DNA from: a virus
Lineage: Duplodnaviria > Caudoviricetes
IMG/VR virus record: IMGVR_UViG_3300043432_000149
Location: 1 to 47,949 of that record
Reading direction: 5' to 3' (one strand)
Length of the DNA stretch: 47,949 nucleotides
The first letter of the stretch is position 1, and each line of letters starts with the position of its first letter. The notes beneath the pieces were generated by a model. The model saw nothing but the letters and a program-made list of their open reading frames with translations. It was not told the origin of the DNA and did not search any database. Below, piece by piece: positions 3,175 through 46,613 of this stretch. The position numbers and the translations under genes are program-made.

Positions 3175-3392
3175 CGCGCGGCGCTCGCTTTCGGTAGGCT
3201 GCCCAGGTTGGTGGTGGCGTGGCGCTTGTAATTGAGTGCGATCCGTCCGGCGCGCGTGGCGCCATCAATCGGATCGGGTTCTGGCGGTGGTGGCAGTCGG
3301 GGCGGCATCGGGACACCTGCGAACGGCAGGCCGCCGTCCAGGGCTCCCATGAGGCCGAGAAGGGCGGCAAGCTGGAGAGTGGAGCGCCTCAT
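3171..3392 (-). CDS. 73-aa hypothetical protein with hydrophobic N-terminus and Pro-rich middle
   Basis: MRRSTLQLAALLGLMG...; overlap-coupled to both neighbours. Confidence 0.5.
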   Translation of the reverse strand: MRRSTLQLAALLGLMGALDGGLPFAGVPMPPRLPPPPEPDPIDGATRAGRIALNYKRHATTNLGSLPKASAAR

Positions 3393-3961
3393 GTTCCGGC
3401 GCTCGCTTTCTGGGCCGGGAACAGGGCCTCGGCCTGCCTGATTGCTTCTTGTGGATCCACGCCTTGCCATACCAAGGCCTCGGCTTCGCGGCGGCGCTGA
3501 AGGCCCAGAAGCACTTCCCCCCCAGCCTTGCGCCATTTGCGGAGCTGATCGGGGATGCTCTCGAAGTCGCGTGCGCAGAGGTCGCCAGCCAGTCCGGTGG
3601 ATGCCTTGAAGGGCGCTCCGCCGAGGTTGAAGGCCAGGTCGATGAGTGCGCCGATCTGGGGCGCGGTGAGTTGAGATGTGAGATTTGCGCCGAGCTTGCC
3701 GTAGACGACGGAGGAAGCCGCCCGTATGTCGGCATCCAGCCAGGCGTCGGCTTGATCCTGCGTGATCGAGCCATCGGATGCCACCTTGTCATCCACGCGC
3801 AAGAGATGGCCGGTCCCGCAAGTCGGATTCCCCTTGAAGGAACCTCCGGGCGGGGCGGGCTTCCCGGTGGCATCGTCATAGAGATACAGGCGCGTGCCTT
3901 CGTAGTGTCGGATCAGGATGAGGGCGATTTCTCGCGCGGTTGGTGTGGCGGTTTGGCTCAT
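3389..3961 (-). CDS. GH24 (T4/P21-type) lysozyme
   Basis: IRHYEG..LYLYDD...TCGTGH, ALIDLAFNLG, GLQRRREAE motifs; GGAG RBS. Confidence 0.9.
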   Translation of the reverse strand: MSQTATPTAREIALILIRHYEGTRLYLYDDATGKPAPPGGSFKGNPTCGTGHLLRVDDKVASDGSITQDQADAWLDADIRAASSVVYGKLGANLTSQLTAPQIGALIDLAFNLGGAPFKASTGLAGDLCARDFESIPDQLRKWRKAGGEVLLGLQRRREAEALVWQGVDPQEAIRQAEALFPAQKASAGT

Positions 3962-4191
3962 GTCGTTTCTCCAAAGAGCGGAAGCTGTTCTTCGGTAATG
4001 GCTGGCCTGGCGTCGGCCTCCGCCTGGCAGTGTCCGCACAGGGGCGCGGCTGCGATGGCGGCGGGCGTGGTGGCGGCCTGTGGCCTGAAAAGCCCCGCGT
4101 TGCAGCCGGGAGCGGGGCAATCCCATGTGTAGATCGGCTCCATGCCGGGGAAGCTAATTTCCCGGCGGATGCCGGATGGGTCAAGGCGCAT
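3958..4191 (-). CDS. small Cys-rich hypothetical protein
   Basis: CPAPGC...CGHC; overlap-coupled. Confidence 0.55.
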   Translation of the reverse strand: MRLDPSGIRREISFPGMEPIYTWDCPAPGCNAGLFRPQAATTPAAIAAAPLCGHCQAEADARPAITEEQLPLFGETT

Positions 4192-8648: not shown

Positions 8649-9080
8649 CTACAGGCGGAATCGACGACCCTGGATGACGGCGGGCATCAAATGGTCAAAA
8701 TCTGCATCGGTGGTGATCAGGTGCGCGCCAGTCGCCTTTGTGGCGGCGGCTATCCATAGATCGTTCTTGCCCATAACGCGGCTTCCGGCAGGGTGGGCAT
8801 GGGAGACAGCATCAATCTCAACGTAGGCATCAATCACCGCTCGACTGTTGATGTCGACCATTACCAGTGACGACAACGCGGCATCAAGGGCGGCTGCCTT
8901 CGGGCCTCCCCAGCTATTCCTTCGGGCCAACGATCTGATTTCCCCTTCCGTGACGACGCATGCCATGGGGCGGCGCGCGCCCTTGTTGGCGTCTATGAAG
9001 CTGGCTATTTCTTGCCCGACGGCGCCACGACGAGCCACCATCATCACGATCGCGGAAGTGTCCAGGAGGAGCCCGCTCAT
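8649..9080 (-). CDS. PIN-domain (VapC-like) ribonuclease
   Basis: LLLDTS, VTEGEI, MGKNDLWIAA, LITTDADF acidic active-site motifs. Confidence 0.9.
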   Translation of the reverse strand: MSGLLLDTSAIVMMVARRGAVGQEIASFIDANKGARRPMACVVTEGEIRSLARRNSWGGPKAAALDAALSSLVMVDINSRAVIDAYVEIDAVSHAHPAGSRVMGKNDLWIAAATKATGAHLITTDADFDHLMPAVIQGRRFRL

Positions 9081-10027
9081 CCGTTCAGTTCCCTGAGCGC
9101 GTCCAGCAGTTCCTCTTCGGTCTCCTCGCCCGGCCAATCACCCCACGGCGGGCCTCCGAGCGTCGCTTGCGGAAGGGGCGGCGCGGGGGCGATCTGTCGC
9201 CTCGATCTGGGCGGGACGGCAAACACTGCGTCTCCAGGCCCGGATTCTTCTTCTATGGATTCGGCATGTATTGCCCAGAGCTTTCCGGATCGCCTAAATA
9301 GGCCAAGACCTTCAGCAACTACGCTGTGGCCCCAAAGCCGGCGGAGCCTTTCTGGGTCGTGACGCCCTGTCCACGCCTGCACGATGTCGCCGTTCTGGAG
9401 CCGGAGGACAACATGAGAACTCGACGCCGAGATGGTATCAAGGATCGCCAGCGTGCGAACCGGCTCAGGGTCGGGCGTCTCTTGAGACAGGCGCAAGAGC
9501 CGCTCCCTGTCCTGTCCCCTGAGCAGGAGGGGCTTCGTTCTCGCCCCAATCCTGCCGAAGTCCAGGGATTCAAGGCCAGAATTTGCGAATGTCGCAAGGT
9601 TTGCGCACGTCTCTAGCAGGGGCTTGTCGGCCAAAACGAGATCGTCATTCCCGGAAAGCGCAGCCTCCAGGATGTCTACGAATAGCTCGATCGTTGTGGC
9701 GGATCCGAGAGCGGGAGGCGCCGCGCTCTCGAATAAACCCGGATCGAGCATGTCGGCAATCGGGCCTTGCCGAACCTCATCCAGCGTGAATGCCTCGACA
9801 TAAAGGGTTTGTGGGGAATTTCTTGACAACCCGACGATGTCGATGCCTGCGGCCCTGGTAAGCCAACCGGGTCTCGTTCCGGATTTCGTGCTCTGCCCCT
9901 CTGCCAAAAACCGGAGTGCCTGCTCTCCGCCAGCAATGAGGGACTGAATTAGCACCAGGAGCGCGCCGCCAGGGAGGCGGACGCCGGCGCTGTCGGGTCC
10001 GTTGATGATGATCGGGTGCTGTTTCAT
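9077..10027 (-). CDS. 316-aa PIN-partner protein of unknown function
   Basis: GGAGG RBS; ATGA overlap with the PIN gene; acidic C-terminal tail WGDWPGEETEEELLDAL. Confidence 0.75.
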   Translation of the reverse strand: MKQHPIIINGPDSAGVRLPGGALLVLIQSLIAGGEQALRFLAEGQSTKSGTRPGWLTRAAGIDIVGLSRNSPQTLYVEAFTLDEVRQGPIADMLDPGLFESAAPPALGSATTIELFVDILEAALSGNDDLVLADKPLLETCANLATFANSGLESLDFGRIGARTKPLLLRGQDRERLLRLSQETPDPEPVRTLAILDTISASSSHVVLRLQNGDIVQAWTGRHDPERLRRLWGHSVVAEGLGLFRRSGKLWAIHAESIEEESGPGDAVFAVPPRSRRQIAPAPPLPQATLGGPPWGDWPGEETEEELLDALRELNG

Positions 10028-12584: not shown

Positions 12585-12907
12585 CCGCCAACTTCACTGC
12601 AGGCTGCCTTTACGGCATTCCGTGCCGATTCTCTGCCCCCGGAGGCTATCCATTTCCAGGCTCCAGGCTGGCCACTCTCATCTCCTTGACTCTGGATCAG
12701 TCCGCAATCCAGCCAGCGACAGAGCCCCTTTTCGCTGAGGCCAACGGCTCCGGAGCGACCAACGCTTCTATACCTACCGACTCCGGAGCCGGCAACCTCA
12801 ACCGGGCCGAGGCCGGCCAGATAGCTGAGGCGGAATCCGCCGGGCGCGCGATTTATAGTGGCTCGCCGTCCGGCGGCCGACCTCAACCGGGGGGGGCTCG
12901 CCGATGA
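12581..12907 (+). CDS. 108-aa ORF overlying structured RNA hairpins
   Basis: GGAGG RBS and ATGA overlaps at both ends; protein has no recognisable motif. Confidence 0.45.
   Translation: MTANFTAGCLYGIPCRFSAPGGYPFPGSRLATLISLTLDQSAIQPATEPLFAEANGSGATNASIPTDSGAGNLNRAEAGQIAEAESAGRAIYSGSPSGGRPQPGGARR
12734..12891 (+). repeat. two tandem hairpin units, GCTGAGGC...ACCTCAACCGGG (12734-12806 and 12824-12891)
   Basis: Shared flanks with different internal stems: CGGCTCCGGAG/CTCCGGAGCCG and CCGCCGGG/TCCGGCGG. Confidence 0.6.
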
Positions 12908-13632
12908 ACCGCCGGGAGCTAGGTAGGGCGCTCAAGCGCGATCGGGAAGCCGCCGGCCTGCTGCCGAGGCAGATGGCAACCGCCGCGCGGATGTCGCTCG
13001 GTGGTCTGCTCGACTGTGAGTCGGGGCAAGGCGAGGAAGCGCACCTCATCAAGTACGCCGAGGCTCTGGCGAAGATCACGCGCCGGGAGCAGCGGGCGCT
13101 CAAAAAAGCTGGTGCCGTATCTCAGATGGGAGAGGGGGGCTCAACATGCAAGCCGCGAGGCCAGCAGGAGCCGGAGGACGCCGGTTCGAGTCCGGCCGGC
13201 ACCGTCAAAATCCACGGAGGCGTAGCTCAGATGGTAGAGCATCGGCCTAACACAGCCGAGCGCGCCGGTTCGGATCCGGCCGCCTCTGGGGTAGCGCGGG
13301 ATAGCTCAAGGGTGGAGCAGCAGGTCCATAGCCTGCCGGCCGCTGGTTCGAGTCCAGCTCCCGCCATCGAGCCAGCGGAGACGCCCGTTCAAATCGGGCC
13401 GCCGGTGCAGGTCCAACCCCTGCCCGGCGTAGGCCAGCAGGTTGCAGACACCGCCCTGGCTCCAATCCAATCTGAGATCACGGAGCAGCTCAGGCCGACA
13501 AAGACGCGGCGGGTTCAGGGTGCCCGCCGCGCCTCCGAGATCTCGCGTTTTTCCGTGGCGCGGGAGCCGCGCGTGCTCGGGCCGGTCCGGGCGGATTATG
13601 TGCCGCTCTCGGCCAGGGAGCTCGAGGCATGA
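12904..13632 (+). CDS. XRE-like HTH protein whose C-terminal part is encoded by tandem tRNA-like elements
   Basis: LGRALKRDREAAGLLPRQMATAARMS...ESG HTH, then GGVAQMVEH and GSSPA peptides, which are translated D- and T-arms. Confidence 0.6.
   Translation: MNRRELGRALKRDREAAGLLPRQMATAARMSLGGLLDCESGQGEEAHLIKYAEALAKITRREQRALKKAGAVSQMGEGGSTCKPRGQQEPEDAGSSPAGTVKIHGGVAQMVEHRPNTAERAGSDPAASGVARDSSRVEQQVHSLPAAGSSPAPAIEPAETPVQIGPPVQVQPLPGVGQQVADTALAPIQSEITEQLRPTKTRRVQGARRASEISRFSVAREPRVLGPVRADYVPLSARELEA
13111..13204 (+). ncRNA. tRNA-like element 1: full cloverleaf, anticodon loop replaced by a 25-nt insert capped by a GCGA tetraloop
   Basis: Acceptor GGTGCCG/CGGCACC; D-arm TCTC-AGATGGGA-GAGG; stem GGCTC/GAGCC; T-arm GCCGG-TTCGAGT-CCGGC. 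Confidence 0.75.
13216..13288 (+). tRNA. tRNA-like element 2 with an 8-nt anticodon loop (CTAACACA); no encoded CCA
   Basis: Acceptor GGAGGCG/CGCCTCT; D-arm GCTC-AGATGGTA-GAGC; stem TCGGC/GCCGA; T-arm GCCGG-TTCGGAT-CCGGC. Confidence 0.7.
13295..13366 (+). tRNA. tRNA-like element 3, Met(CAT)/initiator-like, loop TC-CAT-AG; no encoded CCA
   Basis: Acceptor CGCGGGA/TCCCGCC with a 1:72 mismatch; D stem GCTC/GAGC; stem GCAGG/CCTGC; T-arm GCTGG-TTCGAGT-CCAGC; discriminator A. Confidence 0.7.
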
Positions 13633-13811
13633 GCGTTTCAATCCCCTCTCGCGGGGCATGCAGCCGCGACAACCCCAACCGGGCGCCAGGCGCCCAAAAG
13701 CAGAGCGGCGGGAATCCGCCAAGACCGCCCGCCGCTCAGAATGGTGCCGAATGCGAGGAAAATATAACACTGCCCGTACTGCCGAGCAAGAGCCGGGGTG
13801 GCGCGTGCTGA
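13629..13811 (+). CDS. 60-aa bridging ORF overlying the CRISPR-like repeat and its antisense promoter
   Basis: ATGA overlap upstream; stop overlaps the start of the primase gene; begins VSIPSRG, which is the translated repeat. Confidence 0.35.
   Translation: MSVSIPSRGACSRDNPNRAPGAQKQSGGNPPRPPAAQNGAECEENITLPVLPSKSRGGAC
13635..13670 (-). CRISPR. solitary CRISPR-like repeat, GTCGCGGCTGCATGCCCCGCGAGAGGGGATTGAAAC (36 nt); not an array
   Basis: GTC start, CCCC-GCGAGA-GGGG hairpin directly followed by the 8-nt ATTGAAAC handle; single copy; no cas genes seen. Confidence 0.7.
13761..13789 (-). promoter_or_regulatory. antisense sigma70-type promoter TTGCTC-N17-TATATT with extended -10 TG, pointing at the solitary repeat
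   Basis: -35 at 13789-13784, -10 at 13766-13761; predicted start near 13754, about 85 nt before the repeat. Confidence 0.6.
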
Positions 13812-16081
13812 CGGAACAGGATGTTCTCGGACCCCTGCAAGCCGTGAAGGGTGCGGGGGATTGCAAGTGGACGGCGAAGTGCCCAGCGCACGAGGACGAC
13901 CGCAGGAGCCTGTCCATCTGCCTGGACGGCGGGAAGTGGCTCTTTAAGTGCTTCGCCGGCTGCTCGTTCTCCGAGATCATCGGCCGCATCGGGATTTCCG
14001 CCGCCGAGTGTTTCCCCGAAGACGAGAGGCGGGGGCGGGAAAAGAAGCCAATCCACAAGGCTGCAGCCAAGAAGGCCCCGATCCAAGAGGTCAAGAAGGC
14101 GGCGAAGGCGCCCCAGAAGCTGGGGAAGTTCGTGTGCGCCTATGACTACACGGACGAGGCCGGCGCGCTGCTGTACCAGAACTGCCGGTTCGAGGATCCG
14201 AAGGACTTCCGCCAGCGGCGCCCCGATGGCCAAGGTGGGTGGATCACCCCTTGGGGCCTCGGTGATGTGCGGCGCGTGATCTATCGCCTGCCAGAGGTCC
14301 GGCTCGCCATGAGCCTCGGCGCTCCGATCTGGATCACGGAAGGCGAAAAGGACGCTGATCGGCTGCAGAGCCTCGGGCTGACCGCCACCACGAGCGGGGG
14401 AGCCACGACCTGGCGCCCGGAGTTTGCCGACCTGCTGCAGGGGGCTGACGTGGTCATCGTGCCGGACCAGGACGTATCGGGCCGGATGTACCGGGACGCC
14501 GTCGGCAGCAGCCTGCAGGGCAGGGCAAAGCGAGTGCGGGTCGTGGAATTGCCGGTCGAGTTCCGGCAGAAGCACGGCCTGGACGTGTCTGATTGGCTCG
14601 ACGGAGGAAAGCGACTCGCGGATCTCCTCGAGCTCGAAAAGCAGGCGGCCGAGTGGTCTCCTGAAAAAAAAACGACTGGCGCCGACGCCATCCTGGCCCG
14701 CGGCGGAAAGCTCATGGAGGCGCCCTTGACCGATTACGGCAACGCTGAGCGACTCGCAGAGCTGGCCATGGATGACGACGGCGAGCCCCTCGTGCGGTGG
14801 TGCGAGGCGCGCGGGCAGTGGCTCGCGTGGGACGGAAAAGCCTGGCGATGGGACGAGACCGGGTCGGTCGAATCCCTGGCAAAGCGCACAGTGCGGCGCT
14901 TGCGAGAGGTCGCCGAGGCGATGAACCGCGATGGTATCGCGGACTTCGCTCTAAAAAGCGAAGCTCTCCCGCGGTTGCGGGCGATGATCGAGCTCATGCG
15001 GACAGAGCCGGGGGTTCCCGTCTCGATGGACCAGCTCGACGCCGACGACTGGACGCTGAATTGCCGCAACGGCGTGGTGGACCTGAGGAGCGGGAAGCTG
15101 TTCCCTCACTCCAAAGATCGGCTTCTGACCAAGATGGCGGAGGCCTCGCTCGTTCCTGGTGCATCTCGGACTCGGTGGATCGAGTTCTTGGGCTACATTA
15201 TGGGCGGCGACCAAAGCCGGGTGGACCTGCTGCAGCGCGGGATCGGCGCCAGTGCAAGCGGCGCGCCGTGGCAATACCTGATCTTCCTGTACGGGAGCGG
15301 GGCCAACGGCAAGAGCGTGTTCCTGGAGGTGGTCTCCAGGATTCTGGCGAGCTACGCCGGAGAAGCTGCGCAGGGGCTCCTGCTGCAGAAGAAGAACGAG
15401 GCTCACCCCACCGAGGTTGCTGACCTCATGGGGAAGAGGTTCGTGACCTCGGAAGAGATGGACCAGTCGAGCGTTCTCGACGAAGGGCGCGTCAAGCGGC
15501 TGACCAGTGGCCGGCCGATCAAGGCGCGCTTCATGCGGGAAGACCTCTTCGAGTTTCGGCCGACCCACAAGCTGTGGTTCGCCGTCAACCACAAACCGCG
15601 CGTTCGCGGCCAGGATGAGGGCATCTGGCGTCGCATCAAGCTGGTTCCCTTCGAGGTGCAGATCCCGCCGGAGAAGCGCCGCGACTTCGAGGAAGTGGTC
15701 CAGGGGTTCCTGCAGGAGCGGGACGGGATCTTTGCCTGGATCGTGGAGGGCTGCCTCAGGTGGCAGAAGGAAGGGCTGGGGGCCTCTGAAGCGGTAGATG
15801 CCGCGCACGAGCAGTACCGGACCAGCATGGACGATTTCGGTCAGTTCCTGGAGGACTGCGTTGCGATCGCTCCGGACGCTACGGCGGACTTCTGCAGGGT
15901 GCGCAGCTCGGACCTCTATGGAGCCTATGCGAAGTGGTGCGAGGAAGGCGGAGTCCGGAAGCCCATGTCGCAGACTGCCTTCTCGTTGCGCATGACGGAG
16001 CGCGGCTTCCAGAGCGAGAAGAAGGGGTGCGTGTGGTGGACAGGGATCACCCTGCAATCCAAGCGGGAGGATGCGCCATGA
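13805..16081 (+). CDS. primase-helicase: zinc-binding domain, TOPRIM, and P4/D5-family SF3 helicase
   Basis: CPAHED...KCFAGC; ITEGEKDAD; PDQD; TDYGNAER; Walker A GSGANGKS; GIWRR; likely GTG start at 13805. Confidence 0.93.
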   Translation: MLTEQDVLGPLQAVKGAGDCKWTAKCPAHEDDRRSLSICLDGGKWLFKCFAGCSFSEIIGRIGISAAECFPEDERRGREKKPIHKAAAKKAPIQEVKKAAKAPQKLGKFVCAYDYTDEAGALLYQNCRFEDPKDFRQRRPDGQGGWITPWGLGDVRRVIYRLPEVRLAMSLGAPIWITEGEKDADRLQSLGLTATTSGGATTWRPEFADLLQGADVVIVPDQDVSGRMYRDAVGSSLQGRAKRVRVVELPVEFRQKHGLDVSDWLDGGKRLADLLELEKQAAEWSPEKKTTGADAILARGGKLMEAPLTDYGNAERLAELAMDDDGEPLVRWCEARGQWLAWDGKAWRWDETGSVESLAKRTVRRLREVAEAMNRDGIADFALKSEALPRLRAMIELMRTEPGVPVSMDQLDADDWTLNCRNGVVDLRSGKLFPHSKDRLLTKMAEASLVPGASRTRWIEFLGYIMGGDQSRVDLLQRGIGASASGAPWQYLIFLYGSGANGKSVFLEVVSRILASYAGEAAQGLLLQKKNEAHPTEVADLMGKRFVTSEEMDQSSVLDEGRVKRLTSGRPIKARFMREDLFEFRPTHKLWFAVNHKPRVRGQDEGIWRRIKLVPFEVQIPPEKRRDFEEVVQGFLQERDGIFAWIVEGCLRWQKEGLGASEAVDAAHEQYRTSMDDFGQFLEDCVAIAPDATADFCRVRSSDLYGAYAKWCEEGGVRKPMSQTAFSLRMTERGFQSEKKGCVWWTGITLQSKREDAP

Positions 16082-34520: not shown

Positions 34521-34835
34521 ATGAGTCAGTCTGCCTCATCTGCCCGTCCCCTGCAAATCGTCCCCCGCGTGGGCAGCCCGTCGGCCGCTGTCGAAGCTGG
34601 CCTTGACCCATTCGCCTGGTACATCGACCACGCCGAGGACCAGCTCGATCACTTTGGGCTCTTCTCGCTCGTCGAGGCTTTCCGCGAAGCCGGCTTCAGC
34701 TCCATCCCGATCGAGATGCTCGACATGGAGCGCCACATTGAAGAGCTGTTGGAGCGCGCCCGCGAAGCCACGGCCGACTTGATCGGCCAGCTCTCCGCAC
34801 TCCATGCGAAACGTCAGCGCCGCAAGGTGGACTGA
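34521..34835 (+). CDS. 104-aa unknown protein, paralog of 1466..1816
   Basis: GGAG RBS; AVEAGLDPFAWYIDHAEDQLDHFGL. Confidence 0.75.
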   Translation: MSQSASSARPLQIVPRVGSPSAAVEAGLDPFAWYIDHAEDQLDHFGLFSLVEAFREAGFSSIPIEMLDMERHIEELLERAREATADLIGQLSALHAKRQRRKVD

Positions 34836-43685: not shown

Positions 43686-44090
43686 ATGCCGTTATATGCT
43701 GCCGGAGTTGAGGCGTTCGGGCGGGCTGAAATAAATTGGCCCAGCGATGATGTATTGGTATTGCTTATCGACACGGCCTACTACACAGTAAATCTCGATA
43801 CTCACGACACACTGGCCGATATTCCATCGGGAGCTCGCGTTGCGTCAGCGGCCTTAACTGGGAAAACGGTCAGCGGGCGCGTATTCGATGCAAGCGATGT
43901 TTCAATCAATGGAGTGACCGGCGACTCTGCCGAAGCGATTCTTATCGCCCTCAACACCGGAGTCGAGGCAACATCGACTTTGATTTTCTATACCGACTCT
44001 GGGACGGGGCTCCCGACCTTGTCGTTCTCAAATGAAACAGCAAATATTGCCTGGTCGAACGCGTCAAATAAGATATTCTCAATAGGCTAA
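43686..44090 (+). CDS. conserved minor tail protein, 134 aa
   Basis: INWPSDDVLVLLID...LTGKTV...FDASDV...IAWSN; lower GC than flanks. Confidence 0.7.
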   Translation: MPLYAAGVEAFGRAEINWPSDDVLVLLIDTAYYTVNLDTHDTLADIPSGARVASAALTGKTVSGRVFDASDVSINGVTGDSAEAILIALNTGVEATSTLIFYTDSGTGLPTLSFSNETANIAWSNASNKIFSIG

Positions 44091-45186: not shown

Positions 45187-46239
45187 ATGGGCGACTATAA
45201 GCGCGATTCCGAGGGACGGTGGATCAAGACGCCATCGGGGCTTATCGTGCCCTCCACGTTCGGCGCCCACCTGTTTCTGGCCGGGCCGCTCTCGGGCGCC
45301 GATGCGACCCCGACGCTGCGCGCCATCGACTCCAGCGACCTGCCGGAGGCCACGGACAGCGCGCGTGGCGGGATCGTGCTGACCGAGGACCTGGACGGGA
45401 GTGCCACGGCGCCGCAGGTGAAACAGGCCCGCGGACTTCGGAGTTCTGGCGGAGTGCGCTATCCCATCGGAGCCCTTCCCAGCGGCGGGTTCCTCCGAGT
45501 CGTGAGCGGCAGCATCGTGGGCTGGCCACTGTCGGCTGGTGGCGGATCCCTCCCCGCTGGCCATGATGTCTCCGCTCTCTCCAACGTCGTCTCCCACTGG
45601 CAGATCCTCGATGCGGTCCAGGGCAGCACGAGCGTGCCCGATGCGCTCGGAGCACACAACGGCACGGCGGCGGCCTCCATCAAGACGACAGGGCGCCCCT
45701 GGTATGGCTCCGAAGGCCAAGCGTCCCTCGCCCAGCTCGTCGACCTGGCCAACTCCTCCGCCCTACAGGCTGAGCTCCGCGATGCCTCCTGCGCCTTCAT
45801 GTGCTGGGCCATGGTCGAGCGGCCGACATCCGACACAGTGCTGTTTGTCTGCAACGCCAGCGGCGAGACCTCGGCCACGAACCACCTGCTCCAGGCCGCG
45901 ATCATGAGCACGGGCGTGATGCGCATGTACTGGGAGCACAGCAGCGGCACGGACGTGTCCGTAAGTGGCCCGAAGGTCGCGGCAGGTCTGCGGCATCTAT
46001 GCTGGGCGCGCGAGCACAACACGGGTAGCGGCACCAGCACGGCGCACCTCTGGATCGACGGGATCCGCGTGCTCAGCACGAGCGGACTCACGAATCCATC
46101 GGGAGGGGGCTCGACGACAGGCAAACTCTGGGAAATCGGCGCGGACGTGTGTCTCTCGGACTGCCTGCTGATCTCCGGCTCGATCCCATCGGATGCTCAG
46201 GTGCTGGCCCAGTACCAGCGTGGACATGGCAGCTACTAA
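45187..46239 (+). CDS. LamG/concanavalin-like domain virion protein
   Basis: VSHWQI...DALGAHNGT...FMCW...HLCW...LWIDG...VLAQY pattern. Confidence 0.6.
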   Translation: MGDYKRDSEGRWIKTPSGLIVPSTFGAHLFLAGPLSGADATPTLRAIDSSDLPEATDSARGGIVLTEDLDGSATAPQVKQARGLRSSGGVRYPIGALPSGGFLRVVSGSIVGWPLSAGGGSLPAGHDVSALSNVVSHWQILDAVQGSTSVPDALGAHNGTAAASIKTTGRPWYGSEGQASLAQLVDLANSSALQAELRDASCAFMCWAMVERPTSDTVLFVCNASGETSATNHLLQAAIMSTGVMRMYWEHSSGTDVSVSGPKVAAGLRHLCWAREHNTGSGTSTAHLWIDGIRVLSTSGLTNPSGGGSTTGKLWEIGADVCLSDCLLISGSIPSDAQVLAQYQRGHGSY

Positions 46240-46253
46240 AGCAGGGAGGGACC

Positions 46254-46613
46254 ATGAAAATCGAAGACTGGGGGCAGGCCATCGCTGGCCTGCTCGGAGC
46301 CGGCGGCCTGGGTGCGGCCATAAACAGGTGGCTCACGCTGCGGAACAAGCGCGAGGAATCGGTGGACAGCCGCTTCGAGCGGCTGATCGACGAGCTCCAG
46401 GCGCAGCTGCAGCGGGCGCACGACGCGGCCGATCGGCTGCAGGCCCGCGTGGACGAGCTCACCCGCGCCCAGGCGCAGGACGCGGCCCGCCTTGCGGAGC
46501 TTGAGCGGGTGGTTGCCGAGCAGCGCCGCGAGATCGGCCACCTCGCCCAGAACGCTTGCCAGACGGAAACCTGCGACAGAAGGAGAGAACAGCATGTTGC
46601 GATCCATTCTTGA
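46254..46613 (+). CDS. membrane-anchored coiled-coil protein (holin or lysis accessory-like)
   Basis: GGAGG RBS; AIAGLLGAGGLGAAI followed by a coiled coil. Confidence 0.6.
   Translation: MKIEDWGQAIAGLLGAGGLGAAINRWLTLRNKREESVDSRFERLIDELQAQLQRAHDAADRLQARVDELTRAQAQDAARLAELERVVAEQRREIGHLAQNACQTETCDRRREQHVAIHS

Follow-up and report, generated by a model that had tools for sequence, protein, structure and literature searches.

Solitary CRISPR repeat units (SRUs) that viruses carry behind promoters act as RNA anti-CRISPRs (Racrs) against type I and type V systems (PMC10651486). Racr candidates were described for all CRISPR types but VI, from a search confined to intergenic regions, and the term "type III" has no occurrence in the main text of that report (PMC10651486). 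Inhibitors of type III CRISPR are few, with three protein families described before AcrIIIA1 (PMC11662646). In type III-D2, Cas6 cleavage of a 37-nt repeat yields an 8-nt tag, and no second messenger is made when the target pairs with it (PMC13294483). Neither a tested type III Racr nor a phage-borne anti-tag was found in the literature that we searched, which included few subscription papers. Like the SRUs that gave RacrIF1 and RacrIC1 (Camara-Wilpert et al. 2023, PMC10651486), the unit described here is a lone repeat in a virus without detected cas genes. We propose, with a probability of about 0.45, that it is a Racr-like type III RNA decoy: a read-through RNA that would be cut by Cas6 into a self-safe guide.

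The window analysed here is a whole virus record of 47,949 nt from a tailed phage. In an ORF scan, genes for terminase, portal, capsid, tail, tape-measure and RecE/RecT proteins were present, together with repressor, cro-like and antirepressor genes and a P4-family primase-helicase. No integrase was found among the 70 ORFs scanned or at the record ends, and no terminal repeat was seen in the record, which may therefore be partial. The best-matching metagenome, which may be the source of the record, is from freshwater, and a freshwater-sediment run of a separate study contains identical 151-nt pieces at 13101-13251 and 13781-13931; the sequencing runs that match the phage stretch include no RNA dataset. 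In the host search, the terminase was at most 32% identical to those of named phages, and matches of the primase, at about 35-43%, were scattered across several phyla. Elsewhere in the window, a 148-nt inverted repeat (1610-1757 and 34574-34721, 74% complementary) joins two regulatory regions 33 kb apart, a phage-lysozyme gene (3389-4126, minus strand) lies in the early leftward operon far from a holin-like gene (46149-46613), and a PIN-domain gene (8649-9137, minus strand) is found near the repressor.

The repeat and its two functional parts, as predicted, are the following.

13635..13670, minus strand: solitary CRISPR repeat unit of 36 nt (37 with the preceding T), from the sequence, a model search and folding
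13635..13642, minus strand: 8-nt handle ATTGAAAC, the predicted 5' tag after Cas6 cleavage, with the cut site placed after PMC13294483
13600..13634, minus strand: guide-like tail, antisense to the last 12 codons and the stop codon of a gene for a helix-turn-helix (HTH) protein, from the sequence

The unit is built of a 4-bp C/G stem, a 6-nt loop and the 8-nt 3' handle, which reads as an anti-tag on the plus-strand mRNA. The initial annotation had drawn a minus-strand promoter, two hairpins and this 36-nt unit, all of which we recovered at the same positions in the sequence and the folds.

By sequence criteria, 13635-13670 (minus strand) is a true CRISPR repeat, beyond chance. A covariance model derived solely from array repeats (10 sequences, no solitary unit) scored it at 21.2 bits with an E-value of about 0.001, the next site in the window having an E-value of 0.26; these E-values are rough. 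The Rfam family CRISPR-DR10 aligned to it over the full length at 24.6 bits, which is below the family's cut-off of 39. A Markov estimate for the chance occurrence in this genome of the 13-nt end combined with the 5' stem arm, a motif chosen post hoc, was 4e-6. When up to three mismatches were allowed, the repeat matched once in the window and never in 100 shuffles. Folded by itself, the repeat has an ordinary energy (z -0.33), and within transcripts modelled from 13754 its stem pairs with a probability of 0.85-0.99.

The earlier description of a single unit without cas genes was confirmed by this one match and by a scan of 70 phage ORFs that returned no cas family, in a record that may be partial. 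Within 200 nt on either side, the best local match to the repeat scored 8 and no second model match lay nearby, and the layout of viral mini-arrays, with two repeats, the second of them sometimes degenerate, around a spacer, was not seen. The locus thus agrees with the definition of an SRU in that no cas gene was detected and no other repeat, whole or partial, lies within 100 bp. The guide-like tail likewise has no second copy in the window, where the next best match is 23/35 and the longest other copy 11 nt. A second occurrence of ATTGAAAC at 43899 was rejected; it has no stem, lies inside a conserved coding gene and is within chance expectation. The same sample was sequenced in a second run, and a 151-nt contig from it covers 13551-13701, including both junctions of the repeat, with 0 differences; this speaks against an assembly chimera, although the shared sample makes it no independent one. 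Runs X1, X3, X4 and X5 have gaps over the repeat; they were available as contigs only, and these gaps are hence uninformative on its absence. The stretches 13625-13634 and 13655-13664 (plus strand), around the two ATGs on either side of the repeat's 3' part, are alike at 9 of 10 positions with one gap, which is perhaps a microhomology trace of insertion; this likeness was noticed post hoc.

The initial annotation had looked for support to a near-identical array repeat in a host, and none was found. The exact 22-23-nt core of the repeat is absent from the viral and metagenome contigs searched (0 in each), and the exact 22-nt core has one match in 185,579 genomes, a unit that is itself solitary (L007) in a metagenome-assembled genome of Myxococcota (G001). 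Allowing two mismatches in 121 genomes of the order of G001 returned only this same unit, and a GTCG-anchored family pattern matched 0 viral contigs. A relaxed family pattern retrieved 37-nt arrays in 9 of 301 genomes of the same phylum. G001 itself has arrays of a related 37-nt repeat with spacers of about 39 nt. SRUs are recognised by near-identity to an array repeat (SRUFinder, 41.1 bits); here the closest array repeats agree with the phage repeat at 30-31 of 36 positions with gaps needed, and no array in the sequences searched contains the exact 22-mer. The stem and the whole handle are intact, and the differences from the arrays lie in the 5' half and the loop. The retrieved arrays have loops of 8 or 5 nt at a constant repeat length of 37 nt, and a 6-nt loop occurs in none of them, whereas both lone units have one, that of L007 again in 37 nt. 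This pattern suggests an array family that has not yet been sampled.

We scanned 69 ORFs from regions of five family-bearing genomes for cas genes. Type III-D RAMP families (Csx10, Csx7, TIGR03986) were matched in 2 of the 5 genomes, several of them below curated cut-offs, and GGDD-bearing Cas10-like ORFs lie in the same two clusters. CAPP primase-polymerase genes with Cas1 and RT-like genes were found in three. Cas6 was present in four of five genomes tested, the exception being G001 (no match to PF10040). In G001, the III-D cluster and the arrays are on separate contigs. Indirectly, then, the repeat family is likely type III-D, and it need not be restricted to the one phylum sampled. The array-only model and the array genomes together uphold the view that the phage carries a real CRISPR repeat of a family accompanied by type III-D genes and Cas6. 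In three genomes (L075, L078, L081), arrays of the family directly adjoin CAPP primase-polymerase, RT-like and Cas1 genes.

The repeat lies among the following plus-strand genes.

12904..13632, plus strand: 242-aa ORF with an N-terminal HTH, a conserved C-terminal tail and a linker of tRNA-like genes, from homologues and coding bias
13110-13206, 13215-13289 and 13295-13366, plus strand: three tandem tRNA-like genes, in frame inside the HTH ORF, from tRNA and fold searches
13629..13811, plus strand: 60-aa ORF over the repeat, with flat codon GC and no homologue
13751..16081, plus strand: P4-family primase-helicase, from a profile scan, a gene caller and a relative

Judged by its sequence, the 242-aa ORF is a real gene, because a 153-aa relative shares both the N-terminal HTH and the C-terminal tail and both parts show coding-type GC bias. 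The ESM Atlas placed the protein in generic HTH clusters only (0.89-0.90), viral and metagenome contigs contained no relative of the gene, and in three relatives known as proteins the linker is about 90 aa shorter. The tRNA-like genes have odd anticodon loops, two being read as CAT by ARAGORN and one having an 8-nt loop, and encode no CCA after the discriminator. Further T-arm-like hairpins continue the linker to about 13470 (z -2.9), and the tRNA-like region lies 270 nt from the repeat. The loops have no nearby complement longer than 9 nt, and seed pairing of the P4 CI/C4 type was not found. These genes may serve to divert defences that cut tRNAs or may be sites at which the early mRNA is processed, or they may have nothing to do with the repeat.

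The repeat starts 2 nt past the HTH stop codon (13632) and ends before the primase ATG (13751), under the called 60-aa ORF. This ORF is probably incidental; a role as a conserved leader peptide was considered and rejected, as it shows neither codon-position bias nor a homologue. The repeat would thus lie backwards in a 120-nt gap of an early operon and be effectively intergenic. The primase probably starts at ATG 13751 and not at 13805, since the gene caller and an 82%-identical relative (P0003), with a similar 18-residue extension, both start there. The promoter then sits inside the first 13 primase codons; the repeat does precede the primase, as first described, with its supposed promoter within primase codons. 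The close relatives (the P0001 cluster and P0003) are known as proteins only, and comparisons with them give minimum numbers of nucleotide changes. Among the primase relatives with DNA context, six loci at 27-38% identity, none has the repeat or the tRNA-like genes.

Three elements precede the repeat on its own strand.

13761..13789, minus strand: sigma-70-like promoter with extended -10 box and predicted start at about 13754, from a matrix score
13696..13737, minus strand: strong hairpin (13703-13737) with a UGCUUUU tail, terminator-like, from folding and a terminator scan
13681..13695, minus strand: small G+C hairpin, from folding

The promoter comprises a -35 box TTGCTC (13789-13784), a 17-nt spacer, the dinucleotide TG (13769-13768) and a -10 box TATATT (13766-13761); it overlies primase codons 4-13, its predicted start falls on the primase start codon, and it lies 90 nt upstream of the repeat on the right strand. 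It ranked fifth in the window by a sigma-70 matrix and is one of two TGnTATAWT sites; a strict consensus scanner did not list it (8/12 matches). As derived from the P0003 protein, the codons under both boxes need 0 changes inside the boxes, and those of the spacer need at least six changes in 17 nt, by which the TG would be lost. Box conservation is weak support for a promoter, as constraint on the protein would also explain it. An imperfect inverted repeat across the -35 box and spacer (13770-13789) is a possible operator for an HTH protein.

The 13703-13737 hairpin (-24.6 kcal/mol) stands between this promoter and the repeat. The proposal that the repeat has its own antisense promoter is doubtful: the site is plausible, but it might just as well serve a short countertranscript over the primase start, ending at this terminator-like hairpin before the repeat. 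From this arrangement, the promoter may yield two RNAs, a terminated countertranscript of about 60 nt and a read-through product that carries the repeat.

Alternatively, the repeat may be a neutral relic, a fragment drifting in the gap after the HTH stop codon, with the promoter and hairpin forming a plasmid-like primase countertranscript that has nothing to do with CRISPR. Besides the terminator-like site upstream of the repeat, this reading would account for a unit that is one nucleotide short and in its 5' half divergent from all arrays seen, and no conservation could be demonstrated in our searches of viral and metagenome contigs. Against it, the stem and handle are perfect and an unrelated element keeps the same 25 nt, in a match that was, however, selected by the query. 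We regard it as the least probable of the readings considered here.

The decoy, which we prefer, would work as follows. Antisense transcription would start at about 13754 and partly read through the 13703-13737 hairpin, and a host Cas6 would cut the product to leave AUUGAAAC followed by about 35 nt. This guide would be loaded into a host III-D complex in competition with immune crRNAs, occupying Cas6 as well as the effector. Its only known match is the tag-protected mRNA of the phage itself. As this mRNA carries the complement of the tag, a complex loaded with the guide would bind at the end of the HTH message, and might cut there, without setting off Cas10 signalling. With a target marked as self in this way, the decoy would be cheap for the phage. 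In type III-A and III-B systems, pairing with the tag does not prevent target cutting. Cuts directed by the guide would fall within the final 12 HTH codons, some 120-150 nt 5' of the primase start. The earlier idea that the mRNA would be cut just ahead of the primase holds in that the cuts would lie upstream of it; knock-down of the primase would not be automatic, since its ribosome-binding site stays on the downstream piece. The terminated RNA of about 60 nt would be antisense to that ribosome-binding site and the start codon, and may tune replication separately. The full complementarity of guide and handle to the phage mRNA, also put forward initially, would hold for any repeat placed antisense and does not speak for design.

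In favour of the decoy, an unrelated integrated element, in a host genome with the repeat family, carries a second lone unit, L007, that likewise runs antisense to an early-type operon, and the Racrs of types I and V provide a precedent for SRUs behind promoters (PMC10651486). On the other side, a matching host III-D system is an assumption, and the hairpin may stop most transcripts before they reach the repeat. In one survey, stand-alone type III repeats at host loci were for the most part considered non-functional (10.1101/2023.03.03.530964). General annotation identified no acr gene near the repeat.

The unit L007 (L007:6975-7071, corresponding to about 46000-46100 of G001:C333) shares 25 nt with the phage repeat and lies antisense just ahead of an excisionase-integrase pair beside a tRNA-Sec gene. 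No virion genes were detected among 40 ORFs scanned in this element, and tblastx of the window against G001:C333 gave short low-complexity chains only, which show no relatedness. No promoter-like site occurs within 300 nt of L007, so a promoter is not a shared trait of the lone units. Directly behind its handle, 17 nt repeat the excisionase start exactly, the two copies being 71 nt apart; none of 2000 simulations produced a duplication of this kind, whereas 13 of 139 real 400-nt windows of that contig contain one. Read from its sequence, the L007 guide would anneal to the beginning of the xis mRNA, where no anti-tag is present.

The duplication resembles a recombination scar and raises a second explanation of the phage unit, namely that a host spacer targeting the mRNA recombined with its protospacer and so brought the repeat into the phage. 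The anti-tag would then lie beside the old target, where a host crRNA would bind without Cas10 activation; the benefit would arise in cis without any phage RNA, and the promoter would serve a primase countertranscript. Such an origin would fit the geometry, which matches a type III repeat-spacer unit superimposed on its target, as well as the lack of a promoter-like site at L007 and the terminator-like hairpin that parts promoter from repeat in the phage. Recombination between spacers and phages is on record (Varble et al. 2019, cited in PMC8616872). Yet no host spacer matching the phage was found among about 74 array units of G001 (blastn), nor in a 20-kb search of five family-bearing genomes, which also gave no hit at the guide-like tail. 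The phage window itself shows no clear duplication (longest 11 nt), and the frequency of 17-nt duplications in the L007 contig weakens the scar. In cis only 8 nt would be needed, yet the stem is intact. We consider this origin unlikely.

The orientation of the lone units, which is mixed, also counts against it. Of nine lone or mini loci of the family, the phage unit and L007 included, four are antisense to their neighbours, three sense and two unclear, as assigned by eye from ORF lists; the count excludes L034, which is the first repeat of an array, and array loci. No orientation bias is demonstrated among them. Three viral loci (L010, L011, L015) were set aside because they probably match by chance. 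A 106-kb virus carries a lone family repeat (L062:2501-2537, minus strand) that lies in sense orientation just 5' of a GroES-like gene and is followed by a partly similar 20-nt stretch. Two viral loci are mini-arrays of the same repeat family, antisense to their flanking genes (L065:2501-2618, minus strand; L064:2488-2524, plus strand), and L065, like the phage window, has a stop codon 5 nt from the end of its last handle.

A guide that covers a conserved gene end could also be used as one. The processed RNA would then be a working crRNA with two effects: silent cutting of the early mRNA of the phage itself, by which lytic genes or replication would be damped, and full Cas10 signalling against sibling phages in which the conserved gene end lacks the anti-tag. 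At the end covered by the tail, the relatives P0001, P0122 and P0123 differ by at least 3 of 36 nt as derived from protein. Viral mini-arrays mediate competition between viruses (PMC11656645), and the repressor, cro-like and antirepressor genes would suit damping of the lytic genes, with lysogeny an assumption in a possibly partial record in which no integrase was found. L007 points both ways, since its tail matches the excisionase start, and such a target without an anti-tag would risk self-activation. A cut 5' of the primase ribosome-binding site need not lower the primase. We judge this use of the RNA to be just as improbable as capture by recombination.

The decoy, capture, working-crRNA and relic readings are not mutually exclusive. 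Through an antisense guide that Cas6 processes from the conserved gene end, a captured repeat could use the host III-D machinery to mark the phage's own mRNA as self, trim it silently and trigger Cas10 against tagless siblings, and L007 would apply the same trick to its excisionase message; we rate this self/non-self device as somewhat more doubtful than capture or a working crRNA alone, and as less so than a relic.

As a decoy, the locus would be a compact candidate for a type III RNA anti-CRISPR. More generally, a transcribed operon that carries a repeat in reverse orientation would hand an RNA-targeting system a guide together with the mark that labels its target as "self", an arrangement that could act as a decoy, allow escape from a host spacer or exclude sibling phages. 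If true, self/non-self units would be missed or discounted by SRU searches restricted to intergenic regions.

Antisense countertranscripts control replication genes in plasmids R1 (CopA/tap) and pT181, and the CI RNA of phage P4 lies upstream of the alpha primase. The phage locus resembles the plasmid systems in having a promoter that faces the start of a replication gene and a terminator-like hairpin about 60 nt on, and P4 CI in having tRNA-like RNA inside an ORF upstream of a P4-family primase. These systems contain no CRISPR repeat, and no Rfam family of this kind matched the phage window.

The Racrs have an essentially intergenic position and a predicted promoter within 250 bp upstream (PMC10651486). 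The phage unit, for comparison, lies between the HTH stop codon and the primase ATG but under the called 60-aa ORF, and its candidate promoter is of rank 5 by the sigma-70 matrix, absent from the strict scan and separated from the repeat by the terminator-like hairpin. The Racrs tested belong to types I-C, I-E, I-F and V-A, whereas the phage repeat family is III-D-associated, and RacrIF1 keeps Cas6f on its hairpin, whereas the active piece of the phage RNA would be the handle with its downstream tail (PMC10651486). Unlike the Racrs, the phage unit is antisense inside a transcribed operon, and neither a near-identical host repeat nor an acr neighbour was found.

Viral crRNA-like RNAs (Cracrs) also consist of a single repeat with a guide-like tail and are predicted to reprogram host Cas proteins (10.1101/2024.10.29.618823). 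Cracrs come from types I and V-A, have partial matches to host cas or creT promoters and act on DNA as repressors of transcription; the terms "type III" and "antisense" do not occur in the available text of that study (10.1101/2024.10.29.618823). The only match found for the phage guide, in contrast, is its own RNA. Viral mini-arrays would likewise borrow a host effector against related viruses (PMC11656645). Unlike these, the phage unit has no second repeat and no acquired spacer; its guide is the end of its own gene, and the anti-tag would spare self. By these comparisons, the unit appears to be a variant of the viral solitary repeats that is type III-D-like, antisense and self-tagged, with a predicted function.
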